The notes below the pieces were generated by a model. That model made no database searches, was not told the origin of the DNA, and saw only the letters and a list, made by a program, of their open reading frames with translations. From a virus: a stretch of DNA of 17,469 nt. The stretch spans positions 1 to 17,469 of IMG/VR virus record IMGVR_UViG_3300045988_160567; one strand, written 5' to 3'. Made by a program: the position numbers and the translations under genes. Each line of letters opens with the position of its first letter. The stretch's first letter is position 1. Of the stretch, positions 1-16,925 are shown piece by piece.

Positions 1-284
1 GGGGTATATATACAGAAATCGTCACATCTTCCCCATCCGTCACACCTGTAACATCCGTAACATGATCTGCATCACACACCCTCTAGAACGCGTTGTAACC
101 CACCTAGAACGGACGAAAAAATCGGCCTAGGCGTGGACACACACCCACCATGGCGATTGCTTCTAGGGCCCTTACAGCGCGTCTGAGGCCCATCTGGGCG
201 GGCTGGGTTCGGCGTTGTGTCTCGGGATCACCCGCCGGCTGTTTGTGGCCCACGTCACACCAATTCTGGTGAGGCGCATCACAG

Positions 285-450
285 CGGGCGCCTGTCAAGG
301 GCATTCTGTGTGGCGTTGGTCACGCACCCTAATTAACCGATCGGTTAAATGGCGCGCACCACAATCACGGTTTGTCAAGATCGAGCGAGCGTGGCGTCGG
401 TCACAAACTGTCCCTAAATTAACCGGCCGGTCGGTTGGTGACCGACCGCA
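285..450. repeat. Two tandem ~80-86-bp modules inside ITR-L, mirrored at about 17020-17185
   Basis: Each module has four parts in the same order. First, GGCGCATCACA / GCGCGCACCACA (274-284, 352-363). Second, TGTCAA, which is TTGACA on the other strand (293-298, 373-378). Third, GTGGCGTTGGTCAC / GTGGCGTCGGTCAC (310-323, 391-404). Fourth, CCCTAA(A)TTAACCG followed by a palindrome (333-348, 419-438). Confidence 0.7.
333..348. promoter_or_regulatory. Perfect 16-bp palindrome TTAACCGATCGGTTAA, candidate protein-binding site or operator
   Basis: Read directly from the sequence. An identical copy lies in ITR-R at 17121-17136. A related partial palindrome, TTAACCGGCCGGT (419-431), sits in the next module. 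Confidence 0.45.
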
Positions 451-540: not shown

Positions 541-993
541 GTGATTAGCAAGATTCTGGATGATATGACGCTCGATTGGGATTACGCCAGTGAGAGGAAG
601 GCGATGAGCCGGTCCTATTCCGGCCGAATCGTGTTCGGATGGTACTTTTTCATCATGGCGGGGGAGAATGGTTGGACCGGCTTCGTCGAGAATAAGATCT
701 ATGCCTTCAAGCGCTTCGAAGTCTCTTCGGACGATGAGACGGCCCTCACGCTTATCTTGAATAAGATGAAGGCATTCATCGCAGTTGTTCAGGACTTCCG
801 ATCAGCGGTCGCTCGGGAATCGAGTGATCACATCTATAACCGCATTCCGTCCGATGACGCGATTATCGGATTGTCCGGTCCGTACGGCAGTCGGATTAAT
901 GTTATCGAGGATCGCGTTGGCGGATGGCACGCCATTGGCGGCGGACGGTACTGTGACATGGTTAGCCGTGTCATTACTATGATGGGGCTGTGA
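541..993 (+). CDS. Hypothetical early protein (150 aa), first gene of the left early operon
   Basis: GTG start 6-8 nt after the RBS CAGAGAGGTACAGAAAG. Its stop overlaps the next start (GTGATG). I recognise no motif. Confidence 0.7.
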   Translation: MISKILDDMTLDWDYASERKAMSRSYSGRIVFGWYFFIMAGENGWTGFVENKIYAFKRFEVSSDDETALTLILNKMKAFIAVVQDFRSAVARESSDHIYNRIPSDDAIIGLSGPYGSRINVIEDRVGGWHAIGGGRYCDMVSRVITMMGL

Positions 994-1451
994 TGATTTC
1001 CTTTAGCGACTCTTTGATCAAGTTCATTCTTAACGAGACATTCGGAGTCAATTCTTTCGAACTGGCGGGCGACGTCTATCACTTCAATAACGGTGTCAAT
1101 ACTCATGGTTCCATCACTCGCGATGAGACGGGATGGATTGTTCGATACAATCTCACGCCCGTTGAGATCGTGGTGAACCAGAATGGCGGTGAGGCGGATG
1201 ATTTGATCACTGCTCTTGATCGGGCTAATGCGTTGGCCGATTCCGCGCGCATGATCTTGGAGAGGGTCGCGGACCGTGGTTGGGAACCCGTGAGTCATGC
1301 GAAGCACTCGGTTTGCCGATTCTATAAGGACGGCGTTACTGCGACTCTTTATCAGAACATTTCCCGTACGTGCCCGTTCAGTGTTGTGGGGCCGCACGCG
1401 GCCGTGACCGATTTCGTTGTTGCGGGGAAGGGCATGGTGGATTGGCGATGA
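990..1451 (+). CDS. Hypothetical early protein (~152 aa)
   Basis: The start (GTG 990 or ATG 993) overlaps the upstream stop. The gene is co-oriented and tightly packed. No motif recognised. Confidence 0.7.
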   Translation: MMISFSDSLIKFILNETFGVNSFELAGDVYHFNNGVNTHGSITRDETGWIVRYNLTPVEIVVNQNGGEADDLITALDRANALADSARMILERVADRGWEPVSHAKHSVCRFYKDGVTATLYQNISRTCPFSVVGPHAAVTDFVVAGKGMVDWR

Positions 1452-1867
1452 CGCAGGTTTTCAAGTGGTTTGTCAATGATATTCGCATCGTTTCGGACGA
1501 GCCGAGGGTCGTTCGAGCCGATTTCAACAATTATGACGTTGCGGTGTTCAGTGATGAGAGCGGGTTCTGGCGCGTAAAGATTCTGGGGAAAGATTTTATT
1601 GTCAAGATTCCCGGGACGCCCGGGTTCAGGATCGCCTTTGTTCAGGCACTCAGACTTTCCGAGGAAATGCAAGCGGTTACTGACGCGCTTATGGATGCGG
1701 GGTACAGGAAGGTGGATCCGCTTCATTATGAGTGGGTGATTTTTGAGTCTCCCGACTATAATTGGGTGAGCATCTCCCCCACGGGGGCGAATAGTGATCC
1801 TCGTGGGGAGTGGGGCGTCTACTCCCACAGTGATTCGGTGAGGCGGTCGTTAGAGAGGTTTGCATAA
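1448..1867 (+). CDS. Hypothetical early protein (139 aa)
   Basis: I chose ATG 1448 (MTQVFKWF...), which overlaps the upstream stop as ATGA, over the longer 1370 start that would overlap the previous gene by 82 nt. It shows weak similarity to the 990-1451 product. Confidence 0.7.
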   Translation: MTQVFKWFVNDIRIVSDEPRVVRADFNNYDVAVFSDESGFWRVKILGKDFIVKIPGTPGFRIAFVQALRLSEEMQAVTDALMDAGYRKVDPLHYEWVIFESPDYNWVSISPTGANSDPRGEWGVYSHSDSVRRSLERFA

Positions 1868-1885
1868 GTGTGAGGGGATCGGATA

Positions 1886-2137
1886 ATGTTATCTGAGGTT
1901 ATTGCGGAAGTGGCCGAACACGGCCATGCTAATGTGTCTGATCCGTATGGCGGGCCGTATCTCGCTAGGATATGGGAGGATGATGGTAAGTTGAAGATGG
2001 TCCGCATGGCGAACCATCAGAATGTCATGCTGGTTGTGTGTGATTCTTGGGATGATTTGGCGTGGCATTTCCAGGCTGAACCCACGATCTATCCGCATGC
2101 TCGTCTGTTTCCGTTCCACATCGGAGAGAAACCATGA
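1886..2137 (+). CDS. Hypothetical early protein (83 aa)
   Basis: ATG preceded by the RBS GAGGGGA. The ATGA overlap with the next gene suggests translational coupling. Confidence 0.7.
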   Translation: MLSEVIAEVAEHGHANVSDPYGGPYLARIWEDDGKLKMVRMANHQNVMLVVCDSWDDLAWHFQAEPTIYPHARLFPFHIGEKP

Positions 2138-2460
2138 TCGCACTCTTTTATGACAAGCGGCTTGATCCGCATCGTGTGAAGTGCTCGGTGTACGGGCGCA
2201 ATAGTGGGAAGTTCCGGATCGCATTCCGATTCCGGGGCTGGACTCATATCATGGTGACCAATAGGGTTACTGGGGCCATGTGCCTCGAGTGCCCGGTAAC
2301 ACGATATTTTAGTTACACTAAGGATGATGCCATTAAGGGCATGACGGAGGATGAAGCCGTCTATCACGCCCTGAACATCATGGTCACGGCGGCTTACAAC
2401 GATATCGTCGTGGTCGCGCGTCCGGGGGAGTCCCGGCGCGAGTCTCGGAAGGAGAACTGA
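2134..2460 (+). CDS. Hypothetical early protein (108 aa), basic C-terminus
   Basis: ATG preceded by GGAGAGAAA. The ORF fills the gap exactly. No motif recognised. Confidence 0.7.
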   Translation: MIALFYDKRLDPHRVKCSVYGRNSGKFRIAFRFRGWTHIMVTNRVTGAMCLECPVTRYFSYTKDDAIKGMTEDEAVYHALNIMVTAAYNDIVVVARPGESRRESRKEN

Positions 2461-2462
2461 AC

Positions 2463-2801
2463 ATGTCCATCAATTCTTATGGCGCTCCCCTGTCTTTCGT
2501 GGATCGTCTGGCTCTGCTCACGAATGCTGAGTCGCTTTATCAGGCGGCGCGTAGTGGCGATTCTTTCGTCTGCGTGAGGGCGGTCATCGGTGAGGTGACC
2601 GGGGATGACGGGGAGGCCCGTGACGTCGCCTATTTCCAGGCGGAGGGCGGCGTCTGGTACCGATCGAGCGCCAGTATCCCGTTGGCTGTGGCGCGCGCGC
2701 TGATCGCGTCGGATGATGCTCCGGAGTCTGTGACTCTGACGCCTGGTACGGCGACGTCGAGGTCGGGCCGGGAGTACACTACGTTGAGTGTTTCGGCCTG
2801 A
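2463..2801 (+). CDS. Putative ssDNA-binding protein (phi29 p5-like), 112 aa
   Basis: Strong RBS GGAAGGAGAA. The gene sits just upstream of the terminal protein and polymerase genes. The segments GDDGEARDVAYFQAEGGVWYRSSASIPLAVARALIAS and VTLTPGTATSRSGREYTTLSVSA resemble my recollection of phi29 p5. The function is tentative. Confidence 0.5.
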   Translation: MSINSYGAPLSFVDRLALLTNAESLYQAARSGDSFVCVRAVIGEVTGDDGEARDVAYFQAEGGVWYRSSASIPLAVARALIASDDAPESVTLTPGTATSRSGREYTTLSVSA

Positions 2802-2857
2802 GTCGAGGGAGGTGATGGGCGGCCCGTCAATATTATTGGCGGGTCGTCCGTTATATT

Positions 2858-3823
2858 ATGAGTGAGTTGGATGATCTTCGTGATGCTGTGCGCCGGGAGA
2901 ATCGGCGCGCGGGGAGGAAGTTGGCGTCTATCGCCAAGGGTACGTATGGTCTGCGTGGGCCGCTGGCGTATATGCGCGGGAAGGTCGAGGGTGTGGACGT
3001 TCGGGGCACTGAGTATGATCCTCGTGTGCCGGGCAGGCGCGTGGGGAGGATGACTACTGCGCAGGCTCGGGTCGCGTTGGAGCGTCTCACTGAGTTCAAT
3101 AACTCAAGGTCGGTGGGATTTTTCAGGGGAGTCGGCGGCGCGGTGATTTCTCGAAAGAATATGGCGGCGTACGCGTATGAGACGCGTCGGTATAATGAGG
3201 AACGTGCGGAATATCGTGCGCGGACGGCTAAGGTTCCGACGCCGTGGTCGGGGTTCGGGCGTACGGCTGAGGAAGTGCTGTCTTGGACGCGTCCGTCGCC
3301 GTGGGAGGCGCCTAAGAATCCTTTTGAGGATCATTTTGATCGTAAATTGCCTCTCCCCCAGCAGATCGTATCGGATGACGCCGCTAAGAAGTTGGCGGAT
3401 CATTTGGCGGAGGCTCGGTTGCCGCGTGGGTATGCGCGGCGGGCGGCTTTGGTGCGTGAGAATATTCGGGATATGGTGGCGCGCACGGGTGATAAGGATT
3501 TGCTGGAAACTATTATGGGCATGGACGATGAGACGCTCATGTTCGTGTGGACGGTGGACGGGACGCTCGCACGAAATATTTCATTCCGCTATGAAGCGGT
3601 GAAATATCTTGAATCGCCGCATCCGCGCACGAGTGAAGAAAAGTTGAAGTCGCGCACCGAGAACTTCCTCATGGGAATGGAGGATTCCCGCGCCGAGTTG
3701 GATCAATATTTGAAGGAGCTTTCCAGTGTCCGTGTCCCGTCGGCGCAGTCGTCGCAAAGGCGATCCTCTGGACGGCGTGGCGGTCGCGGATTTCGAGACG
3801 GACGCGGACGTCGCCGCCGATAG
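2858..3823 (+). CDS. Putative terminal protein, the primer for protein-primed replication (321 aa)
   Basis: The gene lies immediately upstream of, and overlaps, the protein-primed polymerase gene, as phi29 gene 3 does with gene 2. The N-terminus is basic. TAQARVALERLTEFNNSRSVGFF...VISRKNMAAYAYETRRYN is weakly similar to the phi29 terminal protein as I remember it. The C-terminal tail is Arg/Gly-rich. Confidence 0.65.
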   Translation: MSELDDLRDAVRRENRRAGRKLASIAKGTYGLRGPLAYMRGKVEGVDVRGTEYDPRVPGRRVGRMTTAQARVALERLTEFNNSRSVGFFRGVGGAVISRKNMAAYAYETRRYNEERAEYRARTAKVPTPWSGFGRTAEEVLSWTRPSPWEAPKNPFEDHFDRKLPLPQQIVSDDAAKKLADHLAEARLPRGYARRAALVRENIRDMVARTGDKDLLETIMGMDDETLMFVWTVDGTLARNISFRYEAVKYLESPHPRTSEEKLKSRTENFLMGMEDSRAELDQYLKELSSVRVPSAQSSQRRSSGRRGGRGFRDGRGRRRR

Positions 3824-5426
3824 TACTCACGTGTGGGCGTGGTGTCTGCGTGAGGTGAATGCTGAGTGCGGGTACCAGTACGGCACGACTATTGATTCGT
3901 TCATGGCCCGCGTCCTGCATTCCGGGCTGGACGTGTATTTCCACAACCTGCGCTTTGACGGCAATTTCATTATCTACTGGGCTCTGACGCACGGTTACAA
4001 GCACATTGAAGTGGATTCGTCGAAGGATATCATCCCGGAGAATCACTTCTCATGTCTCATTGATGACATGGGGATGTTCTACGCGATTCGATTCCCGGAC
4101 GTCATCTTCAAAGACTCGCTCAAAAAACTGCCCATGACGGTCGGGCAGATGGCGAAAGCGTTCGAGTGCGATCAGGGGAAGGGCGAGATCGACTACACGC
4201 TCCCCCGTCCGGTTGGGTATGAGCCGACGGCGGCTGAGTGGGAGTATGTGCGCACGGATGTGAGTATCGTGGTGACGGCGTTGTCTGAGGTGATTCGTGA
4301 GGGTATGCGGGCGTTGACTGTGGCTTCGGACGCCCTGCACGAGTTCAGGGGCCTTTTCGGTTGGAAGAACTTCGAAAAATACTTCCCGCGCCTGCCGCTC
4401 GATATTGACGCGGATATTCGACGCGCATACAGGGGCGGTTTTACGTACGCGGATCGGCGGACGGCGGGGATGCTGGTTGAGAATGGGTCGGTTTATGACG
4501 TTAATTCTTTGTACCCGTATGTGATGCGCGAGCGGCCGCTCCCCTATGGTGTGCCGGTGCGTTTCGAGGGCGGGCCGCCGTCGGATGGTCTGTGGGTGGG
4601 TCATGTGACGCTGACTGCGCGGATCAGGCCAGATCATATTCCGTGCATTCAAGTGAGGTCGGGGTTTCGTGGTTCGTCGTCGGAGTATGCCGATGAGATC
4701 GTGGAGCCGACGACTTTCAGCGTGTCTTCGGTGGACTGGGCGCTGTGGAATGATCAGTACGATATTGAGGTTTACGCTTGGGATGGTGGCTGGCGGTTCG
4801 CGTCGCGACGGGGGTTCTTCGATTCTTATATTGATAAATGGGGCGCGATCAAGGCCGAATCCAAGGGCGGGAAACGGGCCATGGCGAAACTGTACCTTAA
4901 TTCTTTGTACGGGAAGTTCGGCAGTGGCACCGATGCGACGGGTCGCGTGCCCGTGATGGAGGATGGTGCCGTGCGTCTCGTGCAGGGTAGGGCGAGGACG
5001 CGTGAGCCGGTTTATACGGTGTTGGCGGTTTTTGTGACGTCATGGGCTCGGGACTATACTATTAGGACGGCGCAGAAGAATTATGATCGCTTCCTCTACG
5101 CGGATACTGACTCGCTGCATCTTCTGGGCGCTGAGGATCCTGTGGGTGCGGATGTGCATCCGACGCGGTTGGGTGCGTGGGCGCATGAGAGCGACTTTGA
5201 TAGTGCGGTTTTCAACCGGGCAAAGCAATACTGTGAGAGTAAAGACGGCATTAATGATACCCACATCGCCGGCCTGCCCCGCCACCTGGGAGACAAAATC
5301 TCCCCCATTGACATGTTGCGCGATCAATGTTGGGGCGGTAAACTAGTCCCGAAGAGGATTCCGGGCGGCGTGATCCTCCGAGAGACTTATTTCACATACG
5401 CCGCAGTGAGAGGAAGATCATCGTGA
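3726..5426 (+). CDS. Family-B, protein-primed DNA polymerase (phi29 gp2-like), 566 aa
   Basis: All expected motifs are present: ExoI ADFETD, ExoII HNLRFDGNFI, ExoIII YVRTDVSIV, AYRGGFTY, motif A DVNSLYPY, motif B KLYLNSLYGKFG, motif C LYADTDS, and the KxY motif RAKQY. The GTG start at 3726 lies 7 nt after the Shine-Dalgarno sequence AAGGAG (3713-3718). Confidence 0.97.
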   Translation: MSVSRRRSRRKGDPLDGVAVADFETDADVAADSTHVWAWCLREVNAECGYQYGTTIDSFMARVLHSGLDVYFHNLRFDGNFIIYWALTHGYKHIEVDSSKDIIPENHFSCLIDDMGMFYAIRFPDVIFKDSLKKLPMTVGQMAKAFECDQGKGEIDYTLPRPVGYEPTAAEWEYVRTDVSIVVTALSEVIREGMRALTVASDALHEFRGLFGWKNFEKYFPRLPLDIDADIRRAYRGGFTYADRRTAGMLVENGSVYDVNSLYPYVMRERPLPYGVPVRFEGGPPSDGLWVGHVTLTARIRPDHIPCIQVRSGFRGSSSEYADEIVEPTTFSVSSVDWALWNDQYDIEVYAWDGGWRFASRRGFFDSYIDKWGAIKAESKGGKRAMAKLYLNSLYGKFGSGTDATGRVPVMEDGAVRLVQGRARTREPVYTVLAVFVTSWARDYTIRTAQKNYDRFLYADTDSLHLLGAEDPVGADVHPTRLGAWAHESDFDSAVFNRAKQYCESKDGINDTHIAGLPRHLGDKISPIDMLRDQCWGGKLVPKRIPGGVILRETYFTYAAVRGRSS

Positions 5427-5614
5427 CTGAGGACCGGATGTGCAATATTTCCACTACTATTCCGCGCAATCTCTACGATTATGTGGACGACATGCACTGG
5501 CGCGAGCGGCGCAGCATCGCGTCAATCGTGCGTGACGCGATCCGAGACTGGGCACTGGCCCGCGGATGGGAGGATTGTGATACTCTTTTCTCGCAGGATT
5601 CCGAAGCGCAGTAG
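5423..5614 (+). CDS. Small ribbon-helix-helix (CopG/Arc/MetJ-like) DNA-binding protein, 63 aa
   Basis: ISTTIPRNLYDYVDDMHWRERRSIASIVRDAIRDWALARG fits a strand-helix-helix pattern. The GTG start overlaps the polymerase stop (GTGA) and follows the RBS GAGAGGAAG. It is the last gene of the early operon. Confidence 0.65.
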   Translation: MTEDRMCNISTTIPRNLYDYVDDMHWRERRSIASIVRDAIRDWALARGWEDCDTLFSQDSEAQ

Positions 5615-5700
5615 GCGCCCCGTCGAGATCGGCTCGCCGTGATAGGTGCTCGACGGATGTGATCGCAGGCCCCTGCCGCTACTGCGCGCGGGTGATTCTG

Positions 5701-5709
5701 TGTTATATT
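5701..5709 (+). promoter_or_regulatory. Candidate extended -10 element (TGTTATATT) of a late promoter
   Basis: TGn plus TATATT sits immediately upstream of the late operon. There is no recognisable -35 element, so the promoter may be activator-dependent. The call rests on sequence pattern only. Confidence 0.3.
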
Positions 5710-5754
5710 GGGACGGGGAATTGGATTTCAATTCCCCGTCCCGCTCTTTTATTT
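5710..5754 (+). terminator. Rho-independent terminator ending the left early operon
   Basis: Perfect 14-bp stem GGGACGGGGAATTG (5710-5723) / CAATTCCCCGTCCC (5729-5742) with loop GATTT, followed by GCTCTTTTATTT. Confidence 0.75.
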
Positions 5755-5767
5755 GAGAGGAAATGTG

Positions 5768-6076
5768 ATGGCTGAGTTTTCAGATCTCATCGCAGCACTG
5801 CAGTCCGACTCCCCGCCTGAGAGTATTTATGATGACTTGACCGCCGCCTACGGTGAGCGCGCACAGCTGGCCGAGTCGGCTGGCGCCCGTGTGGCCGAGC
5901 TGGAGGCGGCCAATGCCGCGCTCCTGGCGGAGATCGGGGACCTCAAGGCCCGGAATTATGACCTTCTCGTGCGCGTGGGGGATGATTCCCCGGCCGATTC
6001 GGGAGATTCCGGGGCTGGCGAGGATGAACGGGCGGAGACCATTACTGTGGATGATCTTTTCAAGGAGGATGAGTGA
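5768..6076 (+). CDS. Scaffolding protein (phi29 gp7-like), 102 aa
   Basis: ATG 5768 follows the RBS GAGAGGAAA. The protein is acidic with a helical coiled-coil character (AELEAANAALLAEIGDLKARNYDLL). Its C-terminus ETITVDDLFKEDE resembles phi29 gp7 ETITIEDLEAK. The gene lies directly upstream of the capsid gene. Confidence 0.8.
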   Translation: MAEFSDLIAALQSDSPPESIYDDLTAAYGERAQLAESAGARVAELEAANAALLAEIGDLKARNYDLLVRVGDDSPADSGDSGAGEDERAETITVDDLFKEDE

Positions 6077-7476
6077 TCGTGGGACGCAATCCCGGCGTTA
6101 TCATTGACGCCAACAACCAAGATGTACTGAACGCGATTCGGAATGGGGCGTCGTTTGATTATCAGCGGCGTATTCCGGCGGCCACGCAGGCGAATGTCTC
6201 GGAGGTCCTGGGCACGCTGACGCGCTATCGTCCCCTTTACAATGAGTTCTGCGACGCGCTCGTCAACCGAATCGGCCTCGTGGTCGCCCGGAATAACATC
6301 TGGACGAATCCGTTGGCCGTTTTCAAGCGCGGCAATATTGTGCACGGATCGCAGATCGAGGAGATCCAGACGGGTCTTATCGAGGCGCGCGAGTACTCTC
6401 CTCAGCGCGATTATCTTGAGGGCGAGATCTTCGGGCAGAAGCGACTGGACGTTCGCTCCGCATTTCACACGGTGAATCGCCAGAATTACTATCCCGTGAC
6501 CGTGAATGAGGCGATTCTCCGCCGTGCGTTCCTCGAGGACGGCGGCCTCTCCTCGTTCGTCTCCCAGGTCATGTCCGCGCCGACGACGTCGGATCAGTGG
6601 GACGAGTTCCTGCTCATGACGTCTCTTTTCAAGGTCATGGACTCCACAGCGAGTATTTTCCGCGTCAAGTCGCCGAATCTTCAGCCGCTGAGCGCGACGG
6701 CCGAGGATGCCCGGGCTGCGCTCAAGGTCCTACGGGCGACGGCCGGGCGGCTGGGATTCCTGTCCACCAATTATAATCCCGCGAGGATGCCGACTTTCGC
6801 GTCCCCCGAGGATCTTGTCATCTTCGCGTCCCCGGAGTTCGTCGCGAATATTGACGTGGAGGCGCTCGCCGCGGCGTTCAATATGGACCGGGCGGACGCG
6901 CCGTCGCGGATTATTCAGATCCCACAGGAATGCTTCGGGATCACTGAGTGTCAGGCGATTCTGACGACGCGCGATTTCTTCATGGTCGCGGACACGCTCA
7001 TCGAGACGCGTTCGCAGATCAATCCGGTCGGGCTCACGACGAATTATTTCCTGCACCATCACGAGATCATTTCGGCGTCGCGTTTCGCGCCGTGCGTGAT
7101 GCTGACGACGGGAACTGCGACCGTGATCCCGGCCGCCCCGAAGGCGCCGGTCCTGGGCGCGCTGACGGTGAAGCGGCTGGACGGCTCGGATGTGCCGGCG
7201 ACGGGCGCGGTGCCGGGGGAGACGCTTGTCGTGTCCGCTCCCGTGACCGGGGGCGATGGTTTCGAGTGGGGTATTGATTTCGAGGTCAGATACAATCTGT
7301 CCTCGAAGACGCGGATCGATAATGAGGGCGTGCTCACGATTTCCCCGTCGGAGAAGGGTGGTTCGCTCACGATCGTGGCGTCTCTCGCCTACAGGCCCGC
7401 GGATAATCCTCAGGCCGCCCCGAGCGAGAAGAATGCGTCGATCAAGGTCGAGATCGCGAAGGCGATCAAGGAGTGA
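6073..7476 (+). CDS. Major capsid protein (phi29 gp8-like) with a C-terminal Ig-like (BIG2-type) domain, 467 aa
   Basis: Several segments resemble phi29 gp8 as I remember it: DVLNAIRNG, NRIGLVV, IEEI, FHTVNRQNYY, AFNMDRAD, DFFMVADTL and NYFLHHH. The C-terminal ~100 aa are beta-rich and Ig-like. The start is GTG 6073 or GTG 6079, after AAGGAGGA. Confidence 0.93.
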   Translation: MIVGRNPGVIIDANNQDVLNAIRNGASFDYQRRIPAATQANVSEVLGTLTRYRPLYNEFCDALVNRIGLVVARNNIWTNPLAVFKRGNIVHGSQIEEIQTGLIEAREYSPQRDYLEGEIFGQKRLDVRSAFHTVNRQNYYPVTVNEAILRRAFLEDGGLSSFVSQVMSAPTTSDQWDEFLLMTSLFKVMDSTASIFRVKSPNLQPLSATAEDARAALKVLRATAGRLGFLSTNYNPARMPTFASPEDLVIFASPEFVANIDVEALAAAFNMDRADAPSRIIQIPQECFGITECQAILTTRDFFMVADTLIETRSQINPVGLTTNYFLHHHEIISASRFAPCVMLTTGTATVIPAAPKAPVLGALTVKRLDGSDVPATGAVPGETLVVSAPVTGGDGFEWGIDFEVRYNLSSKTRIDNEGVLTISPSEKGGSLTIVASLAYRPADNPQAAPSEKNASIKVEIAKAIKE

Positions 7477-7485
7477 CGATTTCGC

Positions 7486-7517
7486 GGGCGCCCGGGAATA
7501 TTATTTCCCGGGCGCCC
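7486..7517 (+). terminator. GC-rich hairpin after the capsid gene, a possible attenuator or RNA-stability element
   Basis: 13-bp stem GGGCGCCCGGGAA / TTCCCGGGCGCCC with loop TATTAT. No T-tract follows it, so it is probably a partial terminator or a processing/stability element. Confidence 0.4.
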
Positions 7518-7533
7518 GGGAAAGGATTATCGA

Positions 7534-9660
7534 ATGTCTTCGGCTTTTGACCCGGTTAATGATCCCGGCGATTTCGGGCTTGATTTTTCATACGCCACCT
7601 GGACGCCCGGCACTACTGTGACGCTGTGTAATGTGCCGTGGGACATGGGCTACCGCAACGTGGTCTGGTACAAATCCGACGAGGAATGTTTCCGCGATAT
7701 CATCGCGAACGGCCGCAGCATTGAGATCACGGCCATGACGTATTGCGCGCACGGGCGTCCCGTGCGGATTCCGACGTCTTTCACGGACGCCTCGAAGTAC
7801 AATTACTGCGTCGTCCGGAACGGGCGTGAGGGCGGCGCCCGCCCGAAGATGTATTTCTATTTCATCACGTCCGTGGAGTACGTCGCGCCCGGGACTACGC
7901 AGATCACCCTGCAGCTGGACGTGTGGCAGACGTGGGTGCGCACCGTGAAAATGGGCCGCTGCTATATCGAGCGCTCGCATTTCGTCGAGGCATGCCAGCC
8001 GGCCGGCGACGGCGCCGTGGCACTCGATTACATGCGGAAACGGCTCACGGTGGCCGAGGGACTGGACATGGGCTCCGATTATGTGACGCGCGATTTCATG
8101 CGCAAACCGTTGGCCGACCCTCTGGGCGGGGATCCCGCGCCCGTCGTCGTCATCTGCGCGACCACTAATCTCACGACCGCGTACGGCACCGTGGATAAGC
8201 CGGAACTCAAGACGGCGACGGGCTCCAGTGCGGAGATGCTGCCCAATGGGTGCGAGATCTGGGCGGTGAAGATGAAGGATTTCTCACCCATGATCACCCA
8301 CCTGAAGGATTACCCGTGGGTGTCCCAGGGCATCATCTCCATCACCATGGTACCGGAGTCGGCGATCTTCAAGCACGTGTTCCTGTCACAGAATCCGCAG
8401 AAACTCAACGGCGGCGCCGGCCCCGCGTGCCTCTACTCCATGAATGTGAACTCGGGGGAGGAGCAGCACGTCCGCGTGGATATTGATTTCGCCGGCGATC
8501 TCGTGCACTGGATTCGCAGCACAATTCCCGAACGGTACCGGAGGTTCATGAAGTTCGCCTGCTACCCGTACGCGGCGATCGAATTGACGACGTACACGGC
8601 GACGCCCATCGTGCTCAAGCCCGAACTTTTCGGATCGCCGTCATTGCGAGTCACGCAATTGTCCCACGCCGTGCCGCCCAATCCGCGGATCATGTTCTTC
8701 CCCATGTCCTATGGTGACCGGAAGACGCAGTGGGGTAATTTTGACGACGACGCGGGCGAGTACCTGGACATGGCGGTCGGCATTTCTAACTTGCCGACTT
8801 TCAGTGTGCTCAATAACGGGTACCTGTCCTATATGGCGTCCAGCGCGCATTCGATCGCCTATCAGTATCAGGCGGCGGACTGGTCGCAGGCGAAGGCGCA
8901 GATGGCCGCACAGACCGCATACAATATCGCGGGGAATAATATTGCCACTTCGGCGGCGATCACCAACCAAAGCAACGCGAATATGGGGCAGCAACAGCAT
9001 GTCCGCAACATTCAAAACGCCGCTAATACTGGGCTCGGAATGGTGGGCTCGCTGGCAGGCGGGAATATTCTCGGTGCCGTGACCCAGGGTGTTTCCGGGT
9101 ACGTGAATTATGAGGCCGGGAACGCGCTCACTCAATTGTCCCAGCAAAATGCGTCGGCGATCAACGCGATTCAAACCCGGTCCGGGAACCAACAGCGGGA
9201 CATGAACCTCGAATTGGCGAACGCGACGCGGCGCGGGGATTATCAGTCCGCCATCGCGGGAATCAATGCGAAGACCCAGGATGCGCGGCTCATTCAACCG
9301 ACGACGTCCGGTCAGGTGGGCGGTGAGGCATTCGTCCTGGCGGCGGACCAGTGGAAGCTCGTGGCGAAGATCAAAACGATCCCGGATGGGGCGATGCGCA
9401 CCATCGGGGAGTACTGGCTGAGGTACGGGCAGGCGGCGAATGTTTTCGCCCGGCTCCCCGTTGATTTCCTGTGCATGACGCATTTCACGTACTGGAAGTG
9501 TCTTGAGGTGACGTGCACTTCCCAGTCCTGCCCGGAGTCTTTCCGGGCGACGATCTGCGGTATACTGGAGCAGGGCGTCACGGTGTGGCGGAATAAGGCG
9601 CACATCGGGAATATGGATTACGGTGAGAACAGGCCACTGAAGGATTGGAGTGATCAGTGA
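7534..9660 (+). CDS. Tail knob / distal tube protein (phi29 gp9-like), 708 aa
   Basis: The N-terminal region (VTLCNVPWDMGYRNVVW...KYNYCVV...MYFYFITSVEYVAPGTTQITLQLDVWQTWV...CYIERSH) parallels phi29 gp9 (ADVPFSNDYKNTRWF...WFYAFVTELEF...HFEIDVLQTWMF...FIVREH). Its position after the capsid gene also fits. Confidence 0.88.
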   Translation: MSSAFDPVNDPGDFGLDFSYATWTPGTTVTLCNVPWDMGYRNVVWYKSDEECFRDIIANGRSIEITAMTYCAHGRPVRIPTSFTDASKYNYCVVRNGREGGARPKMYFYFITSVEYVAPGTTQITLQLDVWQTWVRTVKMGRCYIERSHFVEACQPAGDGAVALDYMRKRLTVAEGLDMGSDYVTRDFMRKPLADPLGGDPAPVVVICATTNLTTAYGTVDKPELKTATGSSAEMLPNGCEIWAVKMKDFSPMITHLKDYPWVSQGIISITMVPESAIFKHVFLSQNPQKLNGGAGPACLYSMNVNSGEEQHVRVDIDFAGDLVHWIRSTIPERYRRFMKFACYPYAAIELTTYTATPIVLKPELFGSPSLRVTQLSHAVPPNPRIMFFPMSYGDRKTQWGNFDDDAGEYLDMAVGISNLPTFSVLNNGYLSYMASSAHSIAYQYQAADWSQAKAQMAAQTAYNIAGNNIATSAAITNQSNANMGQQQHVRNIQNAANTGLGMVGSLAGGNILGAVTQGVSGYVNYEAGNALTQLSQQNASAINAIQTRSGNQQRDMNLELANATRRGDYQSAIAGINAKTQDARLIQPTTSGQVGGEAFVLAADQWKLVAKIKTIPDGAMRTIGEYWLRYGQAANVFARLPVDFLCMTHFTYWKCLEVTCTSQSCPESFRATICGILEQGVTVWRNKAHIGNMDYGENRPLKDWSDQ

Positions 9661-10550
9661 TGGGCAGGCGCAAGCGCCCCGACCACGTCAAGAATAATAT
9701 CTATGACAATTTCGGCAAGCCTCTTTCTGTAGATAATTCCGCGTCGCGCCGCGACGTCATGGTCACCATGTACACGCGCCTGCTGGAGGACATGGCGCTG
9801 GCGCGGTTCAAATGGCGTAATATGCCGCCCGGGATTGACGTCCGTTATCTTGAGCAGGCCCTCATCCGCAACGGATTGGCGGCCTTCTATTTCGACGCGG
9901 ATTATGATCGATTCATGTGCCTCACCGCCACGCCCGCGGGCGTCGTCAATATGTATGACAATCCGACCGATTTTCAGGTGTACGGCAATTCCATGGTCAA
10001 TAAGGTGATCTCCGGACGCGATTGCATCCCCATCTGGGGCAACCGTACGCGCACTCCCGAACTCGACGCTATCATGATCTTCGCCCAGCGTCTCGCGGAA
10101 ATCGACGTGACATTCGACGTGACCGCGCTCGCACTGCGCCATCCCTACATCATCTCGGCCTCGCAGGATGAGCGCGTGAGCATGATCAATGCTTTCCGCA
10201 GCGTCGCCGACGGCGACCCCGTCATTTTCACGACCGACGCCATGGGGCCCGCGGCGCTCGGTGAGCGGGCCCAGGTCCTGGATATGCGCTTGGAGAAGGG
10301 GACCGTTGCCGATATTCAAGCCGCGAAATCGCGCGTCTGGGACGAGGCCCTCACATATCTGGGCGTGAAAAACGTGAATGACGATAAGCGCGAAAGAATG
10401 GTGGTAGAAGAGGCCGTCGGCAGCATGGGACAGGTCGCCATGATGCGCACCGTGAGCATCGGCCCGCGCCGCGATGCGGCACGGGAGATCAACAGGAAGT
10501 ACGGACTCGACGTTATTGTTGAGTGGGCGCCTCAGGAGGATGAGATCTAA
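9657..10550 (+). CDS. Portal / upper collar connector (phi29 gp10-like), 297 aa
   Basis: FKWRNMPPGID, FAQRLAEID, DPVIFT and VWDEALTYLGVKNVNDDKRERMVVEE match the conserved connector motifs ([45 protein letters not shown]). The start is GTG 9657 or ATG 9660. Confidence 0.95.
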   Translation: MMGRRKRPDHVKNNIYDNFGKPLSVDNSASRRDVMVTMYTRLLEDMALARFKWRNMPPGIDVRYLEQALIRNGLAAFYFDADYDRFMCLTATPAGVVNMYDNPTDFQVYGNSMVNKVISGRDCIPIWGNRTRTPELDAIMIFAQRLAEIDVTFDVTALALRHPYIISASQDERVSMINAFRSVADGDPVIFTTDAMGPAALGERAQVLDMRLEKGTVADIQAAKSRVWDEALTYLGVKNVNDDKRERMVVEEAVGSMGQVAMMRTVSIGPRRDAAREINRKYGLDVIVEWAPQEDEI

Positions 10551-11281
10551 TGGGCGAGTACACGCTCGAACTGCGTGAGATCGTTGAGGTCTGCGACGTC
10601 GCCGGGCTCGCGCTGTCCGATTATCCGATTTGGGATGAGGGGCACCGGGCCGCGCTCAACGGCAAAATCATTGACCATTATTGGTATCATGAGATCGCTC
10701 ATGAGACCTCCGATCAATTCATCCGGCGTCTGCGCACGAAAATGCGTGAGATCATGCCTTTCTACTGCGAGTACGCGAAAACTCTGCCCGACGCCGAGAT
10801 CATGATGGCTGACGTGGATATGACGGTGGCGTCGGACGGGCGCGCCAGTAATAAATCCGGGCTGGACTCGCGCACCACGACTAAGGATGAGTCCTCGCAA
10901 GAGAGCGCGTCCAATACTGACACCGCCTCGAAGACGCGGGCCGTCAATTCGGAGGCGCCCCAATCCCGGCTCGCGGGAAACGCCGATTACGCCACGAGCG
11001 CCGTGGATACTAATTCGTCGGGCGATTCTCGCGCCACGGGCACCCAGAAAAACACCGGCACCGGCGATAATCGCACCAATACCGCCTCAACGGGCGAGGA
11101 CGAATCCCACAATATCACGCGCACCACGGGTCGCGGCAGGCCGGCGGCCGAGATGATCGCCGCCTGGCGTGCGACCATCGCGAATATTGATATGATGATC
11201 GTAGAGGACCTGTCCGGGCTCTTCCTGTCCGTCTGGGGCCTTGACAGTACATTCACCGACCGCTACCCGACCTATTGGTGA
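10550..11281 (+). CDS. Lower collar / tail tube protein (phi29 gp11-like), 243 aa
   Basis: Synteny supports the call. So does the N-terminal pattern DYPIWDEGHRAALNGKIIDHYWYHEIAHETSDQF...KMREIMPFY, which is typical of picovirus lower collar proteins. The central region is rich in Ser, Thr, Asn and Asp. The start overlaps the upstream stop as TAATG, after AGGAGGA. Confidence 0.85.
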   Translation: MGEYTLELREIVEVCDVAGLALSDYPIWDEGHRAALNGKIIDHYWYHEIAHETSDQFIRRLRTKMREIMPFYCEYAKTLPDAEIMMADVDMTVASDGRASNKSGLDSRTTTKDESSQESASNTDTASKTRAVNSEAPQSRLAGNADYATSAVDTNSSGDSRATGTQKNTGTGDNRTNTASTGEDESHNITRTTGRGRPAAEMIAAWRATIANIDMMIVEDLSGLFLSVWGLDSTFTDRYPTYW

Positions 11282-11294
11282 GAGGACCAATACT

Positions 11295-12794
11295 ATGACG
11301 CTCATCCCCGATAATTATTTCATCCGCCCCAGGCGCGTCAATGACATCGTCCCGCTCACGCGCACCGACGGATACACCTACCTCGAGCTACTCGAGAAGG
11401 TACGCGCCGCCGTATCCGACGTAATTGATTACTGCAATAAGTTCGGCGACGACATCGACGATATTATCAAGGACGTGAACAATACTGTTGACAAGTTCAT
11501 CAAGGACGTCGCCGCGAACCTCACCGAATATGACGCGCATATCGACGCGCGCAAGAAGGAAATCGCCGACCTTCACAAGGCCACAGAAGATTTCATTACC
11601 GAGTTCAAGTCCAAGGTTATTACGGCGCATTTCCAGACCGACGCGACCGGCGATAACGCCACGGCACCGACCGCCGACCCCCAGGTGCGCATCAGCATGC
11701 TCACCACGGCCGGCGCCAGCCGGCTCCGAGACGCCCTCACCGCACTCATAGAGGCCGAGCGCACCGCACGAGTCCAGGCGCAGACCGACGCCGCGAGCGC
11801 CGCCGACGCCGCCCACGAGCAGCTGCGCATCTCGATATCCCAGCGACCCACGCGGGAGGAGGGCGCCCGGCTTTACGCCCCGCACACGCGGGACAGGGCG
11901 GTTTTCATCGGGTCCTCGAATGCGACCGTGAATGACAGGTGGACGCAGGATCTGTGCAATCATTTCGGTTGGGCGCACCATAATTTCGCGATCGGCGGCG
12001 GCGGATTCACGTCCTCCGCCAATTCGTCTTTCCTTTATCAGACTCAGAACGCGATTTCGAATATGTCTGAGGACCTTCGACGCGGGACCGGCTATTTCTT
12101 CGTCGCCGATATGCTCAACGATATTCGCGCGAACAATAATGTGGAAAGCCAGGCGGGCACGGTTTTCCGGCTCATCCGGAATAATTTTCCTAACGCGAGG
12201 ATCATCGTCATCCCCGTTTTCCTGAGCACGTCGCCCATGAATAAGTCGGTCCAGACGGCCCATTCCGCGAGCGCGCGCGAGAACGAGGCCGACCGGGCCG
12301 GCCTGCCCTTCGACGTCGAAATCATCCGCGGCTCGCAGTCGTGGTTCTACGCCACGCCCGGAGAATCCTCCGCCACTAATGAACCGGGCGGCGGCGTGCA
12401 TTTCACCGAGGCCGGCTACACGCAGGCCCGCATGTACATCCAGCGCTACATTTACGGCGGGGATACCTGGCGCAATTTCGGCTGGGAGAATCTCTACCCG
12501 CAGAGCACCGATAAGGTGGACCGTAATTTCAATTATCTGCGCGTCAGCCGATTCCACCACTTCGTCACCATTGACGGAAGTTTCCGCGTCGGCGGCGCCA
12601 CCGCCGGATATGACAGCGTGCTCATGAATCTGCCGCTCTGGGCAACACCCTATGAGTCGGCGTATTTCACCGTGTACGGTCGCGACCGCAGCCCTAGGGT
12701 CGTTTATGTTAATGATAAGGGACAACTCGCGTGCCGGGATCAACTTGCCCAGTGGGAGTACTATGACGTGAACGCCACATGGCGCATTTGGTGA
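11295..12794 (+). CDS. Tail appendage / receptor-binding protein with an SGNH (GDSL-type) esterase domain, 499 aa
   Basis: The gene sits where phi29 gp12 does. The N-terminus is helical coiled-coil. The SGNH blocks are VFIGSSNA (block I Ser), FAIGGGGF (block II Gly), ADMLNDI (block III Asn) and GGGVHFTEAGY (block V His). The tail is beta-rich. I preferred ATG 11295, after GAGAGGA, over the 11241 start. Confidence 0.75.
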   Translation: MTLIPDNYFIRPRRVNDIVPLTRTDGYTYLELLEKVRAAVSDVIDYCNKFGDDIDDIIKDVNNTVDKFIKDVAANLTEYDAHIDARKKEIADLHKATEDFITEFKSKVITAHFQTDATGDNATAPTADPQVRISMLTTAGASRLRDALTALIEAERTARVQAQTDAASAADAAHEQLRISISQRPTREEGARLYAPHTRDRAVFIGSSNATVNDRWTQDLCNHFGWAHHNFAIGGGGFTSSANSSFLYQTQNAISNMSEDLRRGTGYFFVADMLNDIRANNNVESQAGTVFRLIRNNFPNARIIVIPVFLSTSPMNKSVQTAHSASARENEADRAGLPFDVEIIRGSQSWFYATPGESSATNEPGGGVHFTEAGYTQARMYIQRYIYGGDTWRNFGWENLYPQSTDKVDRNFNYLRVSRFHHFVTIDGSFRVGGATAGYDSVLMNLPLWATPYESAYFTVYGRDRSPRVVYVNDKGQLACRDQLAQWEYYDVNATWRIW

Positions 12795-12800
12795 GTAAGC

Positions 12801-14147
12801 ATGGCTTTTGACGCGCAGCATAAAGCCTGCATCATCGCAACACTCGCGCAAGTGGAGGCGTCCGGCAATTATGGCACGATTACCGCGCCGGACACGCTCT
12901 CACTGGGCATCGGGCAGTGGACCCAGGGCCGCGCATATGACCTGCTGAAAAGATTCCCCGCGGGCACGGACTTCGGCGCCACGGTCAATTCCTGGCTCGC
13001 CCAGGGCCGGGACTCGTGGACGATTTCCGCACGCAAATACCAATACCTCAATTCAGCGGACCGGGCGGCATTATCCGGCGCACTCGCATCCCAGACGGGC
13101 CACCAAATCCAAGACTCCCAGATGGAAACGGACCTGACAAATGACTATATTCCCCGGTGCGCCGAACTCGGCCTCGACCCCGAAACCGAGACCGAGGCGT
13201 GCATGCTCCTAATAGTGGTCATGCACCGCTGGGGAAATTACGCGCGCATCCTGACCCGCCTCGCTGAAGGCGCCGGCCACCCTGCCACACTCGATTCAAT
13301 GTTCGCCGCCGTAAAAGCCGAAGGCGAATACGCCGCCGTACCCGGCCGCTATGACACGGCCGTCCCCATGATCCGAAACCTCCAGACAAATGGGGTCCAG
13401 ATCACGGGCGGCGACGGCAGCCAGCCCGGCGCCGGCTACAAACCGGGCGACGATTCAGGCGGGAAATCCCCGAAGGATCAAGTGAAATTGGAGAAGAATA
13501 AACTTCCCCTTTACGTCAGTAAATCGGGTTCCAACTTAATTCTCCACTACGCCGACGGGCGCACCATCACAGCCAGCCCCACACCCACAGGAGAGCACTG
13601 GCAGATATCCACATCCCAAGCGATCCACACGGGATCCACCGGCATCGGCACCGGACAGGCCCCGCCCGGCACCGGAGGCCAGCCCGGCGGCGGCGGCGGC
13701 GGCACAGCCGACGAGCGCATCCACAGGATGACCCAGGAGGCGCTGTCCACGCTCGGGAAATACGTCTACCACCAATGGTATCAGCCGCGACTTCATCCCG
13801 ACCAGTCCGGCGTATCCGACTGCTCCGGATGGACCTGGTACCTCATGATGAAATATTTGGGTGTGGATATTGACCCCAATGGCACGGCGGCAATTTGGGA
13901 TTCCCCTACCGGCTATGTAGTCGCCCAAGGTTCGGGGACATTCAACGCCGTGTCCCAGATCAAGGAGGGCGATTTGATCGTCTGCCGATGGTGGAGCGGC
14001 GGCGGCCACATAGAATACTGCCCCCAAACCGCCACCGACCTGTCCGTCGGAATGCGCGGACCCGACGGCGCAATGGGCCCCAACGGGCCATCGCCCGCCA
14101 CGTCACTTTTCACCGGATGCGAATGGAAATTGAAGCGATATGTCTGA
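12801..14147 (+). CDS. Tail-associated cell-wall hydrolase (phi29 gp13 analogue), 448 aa: lysozyme/transglycosylase-like N-domain, Gly/Pro linker, NlpC/P60-type cysteine peptidase C-domain
   Basis: The N-domain QVEASGNYG...LGIGQWTQ is SLT/lysozyme-like. The linker is GIGTGQAPPGTGGQPGGGGGGT. The C-domain has DCSGWTWYLM (catalytic Cys) and WWSGGGHIEYC (His). The position matches phi29 gene 13. Confidence 0.8.
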   Translation: MAFDAQHKACIIATLAQVEASGNYGTITAPDTLSLGIGQWTQGRAYDLLKRFPAGTDFGATVNSWLAQGRDSWTISARKYQYLNSADRAALSGALASQTGHQIQDSQMETDLTNDYIPRCAELGLDPETETEACMLLIVVMHRWGNYARILTRLAEGAGHPATLDSMFAAVKAEGEYAAVPGRYDTAVPMIRNLQTNGVQITGGDGSQPGAGYKPGDDSGGKSPKDQVKLEKNKLPLYVSKSGSNLILHYADGRTITASPTPTGEHWQISTSQAIHTGSTGIGTGQAPPGTGGQPGGGGGGTADERIHRMTQEALSTLGKYVYHQWYQPRLHPDQSGVSDCSGWTWYLMMKYLGVDIDPNGTAAIWDSPTGYVVAQGSGTFNAVSQIKEGDLIVCRWWSGGGHIEYCPQTATDLSVGMRGPDGAMGPNGPSPATSLFTGCEWKLKRYV

Positions 14148-15135
14148 CTACTATGATTTCGGAAATCTGCTCTCACGCAACGGGGTATTCAACATGGTCG
14201 TGGGCGCCCGCGGCGTCGGCAAAACCTACGGCGCCAAACTCATGGTCATGAAGAATGCCATTGAGAAGGGCGAAGAGTTCGTCTACCTGCGCCGCTACAA
14301 AACAGAGATGCGAACCACTCAGACATTCTTCGCCGACGTCGCCCACGAATACCCGCGCCACAATTTCCGAGTCAACGGCGGCGAGGCGCAATATAAGGAG
14401 AGGGGCGCGCGGAAATGGATCACGTTCGGCTATTTCGTGGCACTCTCCACGGCCCAGAAAATGAAGTCCGTGTCCTATCCCAAGGTCACGCGGATCATTT
14501 ATGACGAGTTCATCATTGAGAAAGGATACGTGCGATACCTCCCCGCCGAAGTGGACGCACTCCTATCCTTCTACAGCACTGTGGACCGCTGGCAGGACCG
14601 CACTCGCGTACTCATGCTCGCCAACGCCGTGAGCATTGATAATCCCTATTTCATTAAATGGAATATCGAACCGTGCGGGAAGGAGTTCGTCACGCGGGGC
14701 GACGGTTTCGTGGTCTGCCAGTTCGTCAATTCCGCGAACTTCAGTTCGCGCGTGCGTGAAACGCGATTCGGCCGATTCCTCGAATCAATGGATCCCGTCG
14801 GAGCCGCATACTCCATTGATAATCGCTTCGCCGACTACACCAATGTCTGGGTGGACGATAAACCCGCCGGCGCCACGCCCGTTATCATACTGAGACTACC
14901 CGAGGGGTCGCTCTCGATTTGGACACACAAAGATCTGTGGTATGCTCAGAAACGGCTCCCGAAGACGGACCTGCCACGATTGGCGTTCGATCACGACGAT
15001 TTGCGCGAAGGTGAGGTACAGGTATCCTACAGTGATAAAATCATGGTCATGCTCCGCACGCAATTCCGCCACGGCCGCATGAGATTCGATAGCCCCCAAA
15101 CCCGTTCGATCCTGAAAGGAATATTCCTCAAATAA
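14140..15135 (+). CDS. DNA encapsidation ATPase (phi29 gp16-like), 331 aa
   Basis: Walker A is VVGARGVGKTYG and Walker B is RIIYDEF. FVYLRRYKTE, LANAVSIDNPYF and RETRFGRF parallel phi29 gp16 (FIYVRRYKPE, LSNAVSVVNPYF, RKTRFGRL). Confidence 0.95.
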   Translation: MSDYYDFGNLLSRNGVFNMVVGARGVGKTYGAKLMVMKNAIEKGEEFVYLRRYKTEMRTTQTFFADVAHEYPRHNFRVNGGEAQYKERGARKWITFGYFVALSTAQKMKSVSYPKVTRIIYDEFIIEKGYVRYLPAEVDALLSFYSTVDRWQDRTRVLMLANAVSIDNPYFIKWNIEPCGKEFVTRGDGFVVCQFVNSANFSSRVRETRFGRFLESMDPVGAAYSIDNRFADYTNVWVDDKPAGATPVIILRLPEGSLSIWTHKDLWYAQKRLPKTDLPRLAFDHDDLREGEVQVSYSDKIMVMLRTQFRHGRMRFDSPQTRSILKGIFLK

Positions 15136-15332
15136 TGGGCAAGCACGTATTCAAGCCCGGCGGCCTCACGCCCGCCCAGCGCAAGACGATTTACACCGTC
15201 GCCATCGCCATCACCGCGATCCTCGGAACCCGCGGAATCCTTGACAAGGATATCATTGAGGTTCTCAATCTCATCGTATCCGCGATCCTCGGAATCGCCA
15301 TCGGGAATGCACAGGACAAGACCGATGAGTGA
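15135..15332 (+). CDS. Putative holin (65 aa, two predicted transmembrane segments, charged C-terminus)
   Basis: The hydrophobic stretches are IYTVAIAITAILGT and VLNLIVSAILGIAIG, and the tail is NAQDKTDE. The gene lies immediately upstream of the endolysin and overlaps its start (ATGAGTGA). Confidence 0.55.
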   Translation: MGKHVFKPGGLTPAQRKTIYTVAIAITAILGTRGILDKDIIEVLNLIVSAILGIAIGNAQDKTDE

Positions 15333-16688: not shown

Positions 16689-16925
16689 TTACCGAACGGT
16701 GTTCTGGGTCACGGCGGCCCAGAACTCATCGTCCTCCGAGGCGATGAAAAATCGGGTCATGTACCCGTGCCCCTGCCGACCCAGGACGGCGTCGGCGATC
16801 GCGTCGATACCGTAGTCATCGACGTCGCCGCCCGCCTCGGCGATGATATCCCGGATCGCCTTCACCGCATCGTTGCGGGACGTGTAGGCGGCCGTCGCGT
16901 CGTTGGGGTTCACCTGAGTGATCAT
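16689..16925 (-). CDS. Hypothetical small acidic right-end early protein (78 aa)
   Basis: The ATG start follows the ITR-derived RBS CAGAGAGGAACAGAAAG, so its promoter and leader are the mirror of the left early ones. It has about 13 Asp/Glu against about 6 Arg/Lys. Confidence 0.75.
   Translation of the reverse strand: MITQVNPNDATAAYTSRNDAVKAIRDIIAEAGGDVDDYGIDAIADAVLGRQGHGYMTRFFIASEDDEFWAAVTQNTVR

Follow-up and report, generated by a model that had tools for sequence, protein, structure and literature searches.

The paired changes in a short stem of the inverted terminal repeats (ITRs) of this phage are best seen as those of a fast-evolving quasi-palindrome, which lies in a single-strand-prone region and adjoins a larger, better-supported ITR hairpin. 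A first-pass annotation had noticed that several base pairs of the stem differ between the two ITR copies at both partners and had taken them as the mark of a selected secondary structure. The observation was confirmed, and the interpretation was partly supported. The stem is one of several pairings open to a hypervariable patch at 225–239 of a repeat-rich ITR, directly after a long imperfect hairpin (hereafter the rod) at 69–199. The explanation that we favor, tentatively, is a mutational footprint left by reverse-complement copying and recombination; the hairpin would be real on single-stranded DNA, and a function of this particular stem is putative.

The window, i.e. the whole stretch of DNA analyzed (17,469 bp), is a complete linear genome of an Av-1-like, phi29-type actinophage (podophage). 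It codes for a family B protein-priming DNA polymerase (PF03175), a Phi29-like capsid protein, a connector, a gp16 packaging ATPase and an endolysin, with genes from 541 to 16023 on the + strand and from 16925 to 16081 on the − strand. A 321-aa ORF at 2858–3823, 5' of the polymerase gene, sits where a terminal-protein gene is expected and is about 90% identical among clade members; it had no match in Pfam and is by its position a candidate terminal protein. Between the capsid gene and the tail gene there is a strong GC-rich hairpin (7481–7520, CGGGCGCCCGGGAAAU...AUUUCCCGGGCGCCCG), probably a terminator or attenuator, which caused weak spurious Rfam hits (SAM-Chlorobi, mir-7177). The nearest isolate is Actinomyces phage Av-1, with a polymerase identity of just 46%, and no nucleotide match to the window was found among GenBank phages by megablast or blastn.

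Close relatives (capsid identity 87–90%) are metagenome contigs only. Samples in which the clade is present are IMG 3300045988, 3300009957 and 3300009963 as well as ERZ19590620, ERZ26859076, ERZ25165985 and ERR6178921. The sole one with fully assembled ITRs is L001 (IMGVR_UViG_3300045988_181454), whose two copies are identical over the 542 nt readable in both. All other contigs of the clade (L002, L003, L005, L050–L065) stop within the ITR; the longest-reaching is L050, the right end of another relative, which begins at ITR position 222. Because every one of these contigs ends inside the ITR, public assemblies are systematically without the termini of this phage clade. L005 shows the same 55-mer at both ends, as expected if an assembler collapses an inverted repeat. 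Searches for further ITR copies were unsuccessful. ITR patterns retrieved only L001 or chance matches from IMG/VR; the ITR search retrieved a CRISPR array (see below) and chance matches from metagenomes, and a chance match from genomes. Contigs encoding clade proteins were all cut inside the ITR, and a chimeric query of the ITR reading frames, directed at spurious ORFs on ITR-only contigs, gave no matches. The end found for the next clade (P0003) is short and unrelated. One contig of the next related clade (L073) begins at 1–12 with TATACCCC, the reverse complement of the terminal GGGGTATA of the window; this terminal inversion may be a fold-back or an assembly artefact.

ITR-L (1–545, + strand) was delimited by alignment with the reverse complement of the right end and extends to the GTG at 541 with which the first gene starts, and ITR-R (16925–17469, − strand) by alignment with the left end. 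The two share 86% identity over 549 nt by BLAST, with 70 mismatches in 540 ungapped columns (about 87%) and a 1-nt indel at position 150; given this indel, position x of ITR-L corresponds to 17469−x for x≥150, as the annotation had assumed. In each ITR there are an early promoter and the signals that start translation of the adjacent first gene, namely a ribosome-binding site and a start codon. The early promoter-like site, TTGACA-17-CATTAT, lies at 463–491 on the + strand, reads inward and is kept in relatives L002, L003 and L005. Between the terminus and the rod there are three tandem 18-nt repeats (family D1, CGTCACA...CATC, 20–73, + strand), namely CGTCACATCTTCCCCATC, CGTCACACCTGTAACATC and CGTAACATGATCTGCATC, which are iteron-like. 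The length of the ITR (~545 bp) is unusually great for a phi29-type phage, and its construction is modular: the direct repeat D2 (184–203 vs 270–289) has its copies 86 nt apart, and units GTGGCGTYGGTCAC ... CCCTAA(A)TTAACCG recur with an 81–86-nt period (310–345, 391–431; families D2–D4). A perfect 16-bp palindrome TTAACCGATCGGTTAA (333–348) and a hairpin CGGTCGG/CCGACCG (428–448) were also observed in the ITR. The motif TTGTCAAG (292–299, 372–379) is found near the ends of Arthrobacter-type relatives as well, and copies of TTCCCCAT and GTAACAT lie close to the genome ends of Av-1, Mantle, Curie and Mendel.

The stem itself could be read directly from both ends. In ITR-L, GGCGGG (197–202) faces CCCGCC (231–236); in ITR-R, AGTCGGC and GCCGACT stand at 17233–17239 and 17266–17272, so that on the − strand the homologue of the 5' arm (17266–17272) reads AGTCGGC and that of the 3' arm (17233–17239) reads GCCGACT. 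Alignment of the ITRs showed that at the pairs 197:236, 199:234 and 200:233 both partners have changed and Watson-Crick pairing is retained, while 198:235, 201:232 and 202:231 are identical in both. A seventh pair, 203:230, is C:G in ITR-R; in ITR-L it is C.A on the + strand, which equals G.U on the − (outward) strand. With this position included, the 5' arm of ITR-L is GGCGGGC (197–203), the 'up' copy of a 7-nt motif that overlaps the base of the rod, and the 3' arm is ACCCGCC (230–236), an inverted 'mid' copy. The loop core TGGGTYCGGYGYTGTGTCTCG at 204–224 is mostly conserved in the alignment of three haplotypes (ITR-L, ITR-R and L001), with TGTGTCTCG invariant; the loop motif TGTGTCTC (216–223; GAGACACA on the other strand) was likewise invariant, as had been reported. 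The description of the stem as lying in the most diverged segment of the ITR did not hold, for the promoter spacer at ~459–483 diverges more.

Are three compensated pairs more than chance would give? The whole ITR was scanned for stems of at least 6 bp that are Watson-Crick in both copies, with a loop of 3–60 nt, and the reported stem was the only one with any compensatory pair. None of 3000 global column shuffles and none of 3000 block shuffles produced three or more compensatory pairs at any place in the ITR. Of 3000 simulations in which ITR-L was fixed and the mismatches were re-dealt in 20-nt bins according to the empirical substitution spectrum, 2 did so. The three compensated pairs thus exceed what independent substitutions give (P<0.001, ITR-wide permutations). 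With the third haplotype included, 77 of 500 shuffles of the three sequences reached the covariation score of the reported register, which in this comparison is not significant. The window may be a metagenome co-assembly, in which case the two copies are two haplotypes. Both haplotypes were seen independently, L050 carrying the 3' arm of the ITR-L type and L001 the 5' part of the ITR-R type. In the isolate Av-1 the ITRs are 94% identical, so imperfect ITRs are real in this group.

The third haplotype does not keep the reported register. L001 reads AGTCGGC / GCCCGAT, which leaves 198:235 (G.A) and 200:233 (C.C) broken and 199:234 only a U.G wobble. An uncompensated break in a relative is what the annotation had named as contrary to a selected stem, and it was thus found in part. 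Across the three haplotypes, 3 of the 21 cells of the reported helix are unpaired, the third being 203:230 (C.A) of ITR-L. Among the registers compared, no single helix is retained by all three haplotypes. Instead, the patch of L001 carries GACGGCCC, a perfect 8-nt complement of GGGCCGTC at 187–194, and this pairing extends to a 12-bp helix of 187–198 with 221–233. ITR-R can form the same helix by using G.U pairs (17237–17281 on the − strand, ITR coordinates 188–198 with 221–232), in competition with the reported stem; in ITR-L the middle of the helix is interrupted by three mismatches. The pair 192:228 is A:U, G.U or G:C across the three haplotypes. The L001-specific change T228C turns the G.U into G:C and strengthens the helix; it looks adaptive, and counts against the reading in which the patch was rewritten by template switching.

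The 5' arm has further partners. Two of its bases, 197 and 199, show covariation with positions in the base of the rod (72 and 69, respectively) as well: the pair 69:199 is G:C in ITR-L and A:U in ITR-R and L001, and 72:197 is U.G vs U:A. A downstream direct copy of the arm motif at 283–289 (AGCGGGC in ITR-L; AGCCGGC in ITR-R, at 17180–17186) is complementary to the 3' arm. Listed in the order 197–203, 230–236 and 283–289, the three 7-mers are GGCGGGC, ACCCGCC and AGCGGGC in ITR-L; AGTCGGC, GCCGACT and AGCCGGC in ITR-R; and AGTCGGC, GCCCGAT and AGCGGGC in L001. It can be seen that the central base of all three copies changes together between ITR-L and ITR-R. The middle 7-mer of L001 pairs best with the downstream copy, and the pair 233:286 is retained in all three haplotypes. 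Alifold gave two more compensated pairs, 229:268 and 230:267. With three sequences, no helix showed covariation beyond the shuffle control. A second long helix predicted by alifold (201–224/270–296) was rejected, its stability being no better than that of shuffles.

The 3' arm of the stem belongs to the 15-nt hypervariable patch (225–239), which has three unrelated versions in the three haplotypes. ITR-R and L001 differ at 5 positions in 61–224 and at 7 of 13 positions in 225–237, differences that are too clustered for point mutation. Directly after the patch the T-rich motif TGTTTGTGG (240–248, + strand) is again conserved. At informative sites, ITR-R equals L001 over 61–~230 and ITR-L equals L001 over 241–545, and the switch in grouping, a recombination breakpoint, falls inside the 3' arm. 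Since L050 carries the L-type 3' arm, the two types could be circulating ITR lineages of which the window joins one of each; alternatively, two strains could have been co-assembled. The mosaicism of the ITR thus points to recent recombination between ITR lineages or to strain co-assembly. In each version of the patch one tract is the exact reverse complement of sequence lying upstream, and its flanks are non-complementary. The tract is 6 nt in ITR-L (source 197–202), 7 nt in ITR-R (197–203) and 8 nt in L001 (187–194, a different register). Shuffled patches reached such lengths with P=0.33 for ITR-L, 0.018 for ITR-R and 0.022 for L001.

Folding energies gave no sign of extra stability around the stem. 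Over 185–250, on both strands and with RNA and DNA parameters, z-scores ran from +0.15 to −1.6; when 198–300 was considered as well, folds on either strand were shuffle-like (+0.38 to −1.6), and the minimum-energy fold of the + strand of ITR-L takes another register than the reported stem. The only robust structure in the region is the rod (69–199, + strand, 47 predicted pairs by alifold; ITR-R copy 17270–17401), which is 130 nt long and has a z of about −5.5. Its predicted fold is unbranched, and 97% of its cells are paired in the three-haplotype test. On the inward strand (stretch 66–203) the RNA z-scores were −5.5 for ITR-R, −5.9 for L001 and −2.4 for ITR-L, and the DNA z-scores −4.5 for ITR-R and −4.7 for L001; the outward strand was weaker (−3.3 and −4.2, with −0.7 for ITR-L). 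The copy in ITR-L carries several disruptions, and its stability is degraded. Wobbles in the rod and in the helix 187–198/221–233 are mostly tolerated on the inward strand only, and in the latter helix G.U is tolerated solely on that strand. The annotation had favored the outward strand; the G.U evidence points instead to the strand that reads inward. Of its selected structure, then, non-random complementarity and a hairpin physically possible on single strands stood, whereas a fixed register, added stability and a unique covarying partner did not.

The rod has counterparts in related phages. Av-1, Mantle (Curtobacterium), Curie (Microbacterium), Voltaire (Glutamicibacter) and Mendel (Arthrobacter) have a strong hairpin 30–170 nt from the terminus, and the rod occupies the same place; in the window, Av-1 and Mantle, the hairpin is preceded by TTCCCCAT, GTAACAT and CATCACA. 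It is far longer than its counterparts (130 nt vs 26–42 nt) and imperfect, and unlike the hairpins of Mendel, Curie and Mantle it is not followed on the outward strand by a T-rich, terminator-like run. In Av-1 the hairpin is followed by TTTGTTTGTGTGG, which resembles TGTTTGTGG at 240–248 of the window. The likeness to these ITR hairpins therefore belongs to the rod and not to the reported stem, which is separate, weak, variable and adjoining. In the Mantle-type ITR hairpin, covariation was absent, the stem being invariant in the three available phages.

How, then, could paired changes have arisen in the arms? Protein-primed, strand-displacement replication would leave the ITR repeatedly single-stranded, and in that state short GC-rich inverted repeats may fold. 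From time to time the polymerase would switch template, and the patch would be overwritten with the reverse complement of sequence a short way upstream; which segment is copied would vary with the lineage (197–202 in the L-type, 197–203 in the R-type, 187–194 in L001). Recombination between ITR lineages would then mix the arms, and the three pairs would look compensated because one terminus of the window has an ITR of the L-type and the opposite terminus one of the R-type. The phi29-type family B polymerase and the putative terminal protein of the window fit this mode of replication. Template switching is known to yield multi-base compensatory changes in one step, without selection (Ripley model; Monttinen and Loytynoja 2022, PMC8794818). 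As in those systems, the differences between close relatives are clustered and multi-base, the new sequence is the reverse complement of a segment nearby (in ITR-R and L001), and the outcome resembles several simultaneous compensatory substitutions. Unlike them, the tracts in the window are 6–8 nt and unpolarised, and they lie in the ITR of a protein-primed phage rather than in a cellular RNA gene. phi29 DNA polymerase readily makes inverted chimeras and junctions on displaced strands in vitro (PMC1855051), the MDA chimera data having been obtained in a system free of phage infection.

Clustered replacement, short reverse-complement tracts and a shifting register together point to a template-switch (quasi-palindrome) footprint. 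From these, and from the breakpoint and the lack of extra thermodynamic stability, we infer both the mechanism and the absence of a function for the stem. Against it, the copied tracts are short, and more than one event is needed because both arms differ between the L-type and the R-type; ancestral states and the direction of the switch are unpolarised in a comparison of three haplotypes without an outgroup. Selection for 'some hairpin' on the flanks of the conserved core 204–224 is compatible with these data too; of the two, template switching is the more likely.

Selection would act, in that case, on a stem of free sequence around the core 204–224 followed by UGUUUGUGG, on the inward strand, as displaced single-stranded DNA or as RNA. 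We consider this a real, if rather doubtful, possibility. Apart from the ITR-wide permutations, it draws on the ability of all three haplotypes to close a helix of 6–12 bp around the same core, on the strand preference of G.U pairs in the helix 187–198/221–233 (and mostly so in the rod), on the improvement of that helix by T228C, and on the similar arrangement in Av-1 of an ITR hairpin followed by TTTGTTTGTGTGG. It is weakened by the failure of any single register to be kept across haplotypes, by z-scores near zero, and by the number of shuffles that reach the observed covariation in three sequences. Possibly the element is terminator- or attenuator-like, with the 5' arm (187–203) pairing with either the rod (67–83) or the patch (221–236). 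In having a U-rich tract after a GC-rich stem whose sequence is free, the element is indeed like a rho-independent terminator, and in having two mutually exclusive partners for its 5' arm it is like an attenuator. But the loop of 26–31 nt is too large for a canonical terminator, the U-tract is interrupted and lies 3–6 nt past the stem, there is no known upstream transcription unit, and the scan for promoter-like sites gave none upstream of the rod. By the usual definition (3–8-nt loop with the U-tract directly after) the reported stem is not a terminator, having a loop of 26–28 nt and TGTTTGTGG beginning 3 nt past the stem; it was also absent from the output of a terminator scan of the ITRs, which gave other, weak sites at 448–424 (−) and 194–212 (+) in ITR-L and at 17246–17230 in ITR-R. 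A different way to obtain apparent compensation without base pairing is concerted evolution of a double-stranded motif, RGYSGGC, present as a direct copy at 197–203, an inverted one at 230–236 and a direct one at 283–289, each a putative site of one protein and each following lineage-specific versions. Positions 200/233/286 are G/C/G in ITR-L and C/G/C in ITR-R, as this would predict, and the ITR modules (the 18-nt iterons at 20–73 and the 81–86-nt repeats D2–D4) are as expected for arrays of protein sites. Yet only 1 of the 3 changes is mirrored in the direct copy, against 3 of 3 in the inverted copy; the one protein must accept both versions, which occur in one genome; and the middle copy of L001 (ATCGGGC) fully matches neither. 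Such a motif is unlikely to be the explanation.

Plain coincidence, in a GC-rich, recombination-scrambled, hypervariable region with palindrome-like motifs (GCCGGC), we judge quite unlikely. The 6-bp stem of ITR-L is by itself unremarkable (P=0.33), many alternative pairings exist, and the stem was noticed in a whole-genome look for anything notable; but three nulls put three compensated pairs, at any place in the ITR, at P<0.001, and complementarity to the upstream sequence is higher in the patches of ITR-R and L001 than in shuffled ones (P about 0.02). Finally, the ITR may encode a structured RNA of ~180 nt, made up of the rod, the variable hairpin and the U-rich 240–248, in two copies per genome and analogous to the prohead RNA of phi29. 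To our knowledge, ITR structure has not been described for the protein-primed group, and we know of no prohead RNA outside Bacillus phages. The window has genes for a phi29-type gp16 ATPase, connector and capsid, and a non-coding structured region near the genome end, in which the rod is highly structured; by eye, the apical loop of the rod (ACACA) is complementary to the loop of the hairpin (UGUGU), although CA/GU-rich motifs are found all over this ITR. In phi29 the pRNA is encoded at 147–320 of the left end, and prohead RNA has been described only for Bacillus phi29 relatives (PMC11476376). The covariance model of phi29 pRNA (RF00044) had no match at E≤10 in the whole window or in each ITR alone, the rod is unbranched and without a three-way junction, and the better-folding strand is the inward one, opposite to that of phi29 pRNA. 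No outward promoter was found in the ITRs: the consensus scan, by which actinobacterial promoters with a weak −35 could be missed, gave only the inward site at 463–491. Such an RNA is very improbable. The Av-1 record (L066, NC_009643.1) annotates a 'packaging RNA' at 16295–16402, near the right end and antisense to ORFs B and C; this segment had no Rfam pRNA match, and its predicted fold is weak.

Other explanations were considered and set aside. Nothing relevant among known RNA families was found in Rfam for the whole window or each ITR (E≤10). All three haplotypes retain an open frame of ~99 codons (167–466 in ITR-L); in it nearly every substitution of the stem region is non-synonymous, its predicted product is an implausible R/W-rich peptide, and a coding explanation was rejected. 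The CRISPR array mentioned above lies at ~60–5550 of contig ODJB01001022.1 (L046); its 28-nt repeat, GTAAACCCCGCGCGAGCGGGGATGATCC, is type I-E-like, and its spacers number 90. Forty of the 90 match the phage clade at 27 or more identical bases. The window is matched by 18, of which at least four are exact (33/33); protospacers in the window include 408–440, 12312–12344, 13791–13823 and 13964–13996, and the 5' flank is mostly NAA or NGA. That at 408–440 (+ strand, 33/33) lies within the ITR and has a second copy at 17029–17061. These spacer matches link the phage clade to a host, probably the organism of this contig, and show that the clade, its ITR included, is heavily targeted. One spacer covers 175–207, matching ITR-L and L001 at 29 of 33 positions and ITR-R at 28 of 33 (hand alignment). 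CRISPR escape as the driver of the change in the 5' arm was not supported: neither the seed nor the PAM is enriched in the changes, and the flank still fits the inferred RA PAM.

What these results would mean depends on the reading. If template switching made the paired changes, 'covariation' among a few sequences can be a mutational footprint in genomes copied by strand displacement, and is then no proof of structure. If the changes were selected, they would point to a single-stranded element with a function in the repeats that bear the origins of a protein-primed phage. If the ITR does encode an RNA, the changes would reflect selection on its 3' hairpin, and actinobacterial phi29-like phages would have in that RNA their counterpart of prohead RNA, or else a different essential non-coding RNA. 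Firmer than these readings is the anatomy around the stem: a modular 545-bp ITR that contains iterons, the conserved hairpin of 130 nt and an early promoter, from a phage clade known only from metagenomes.
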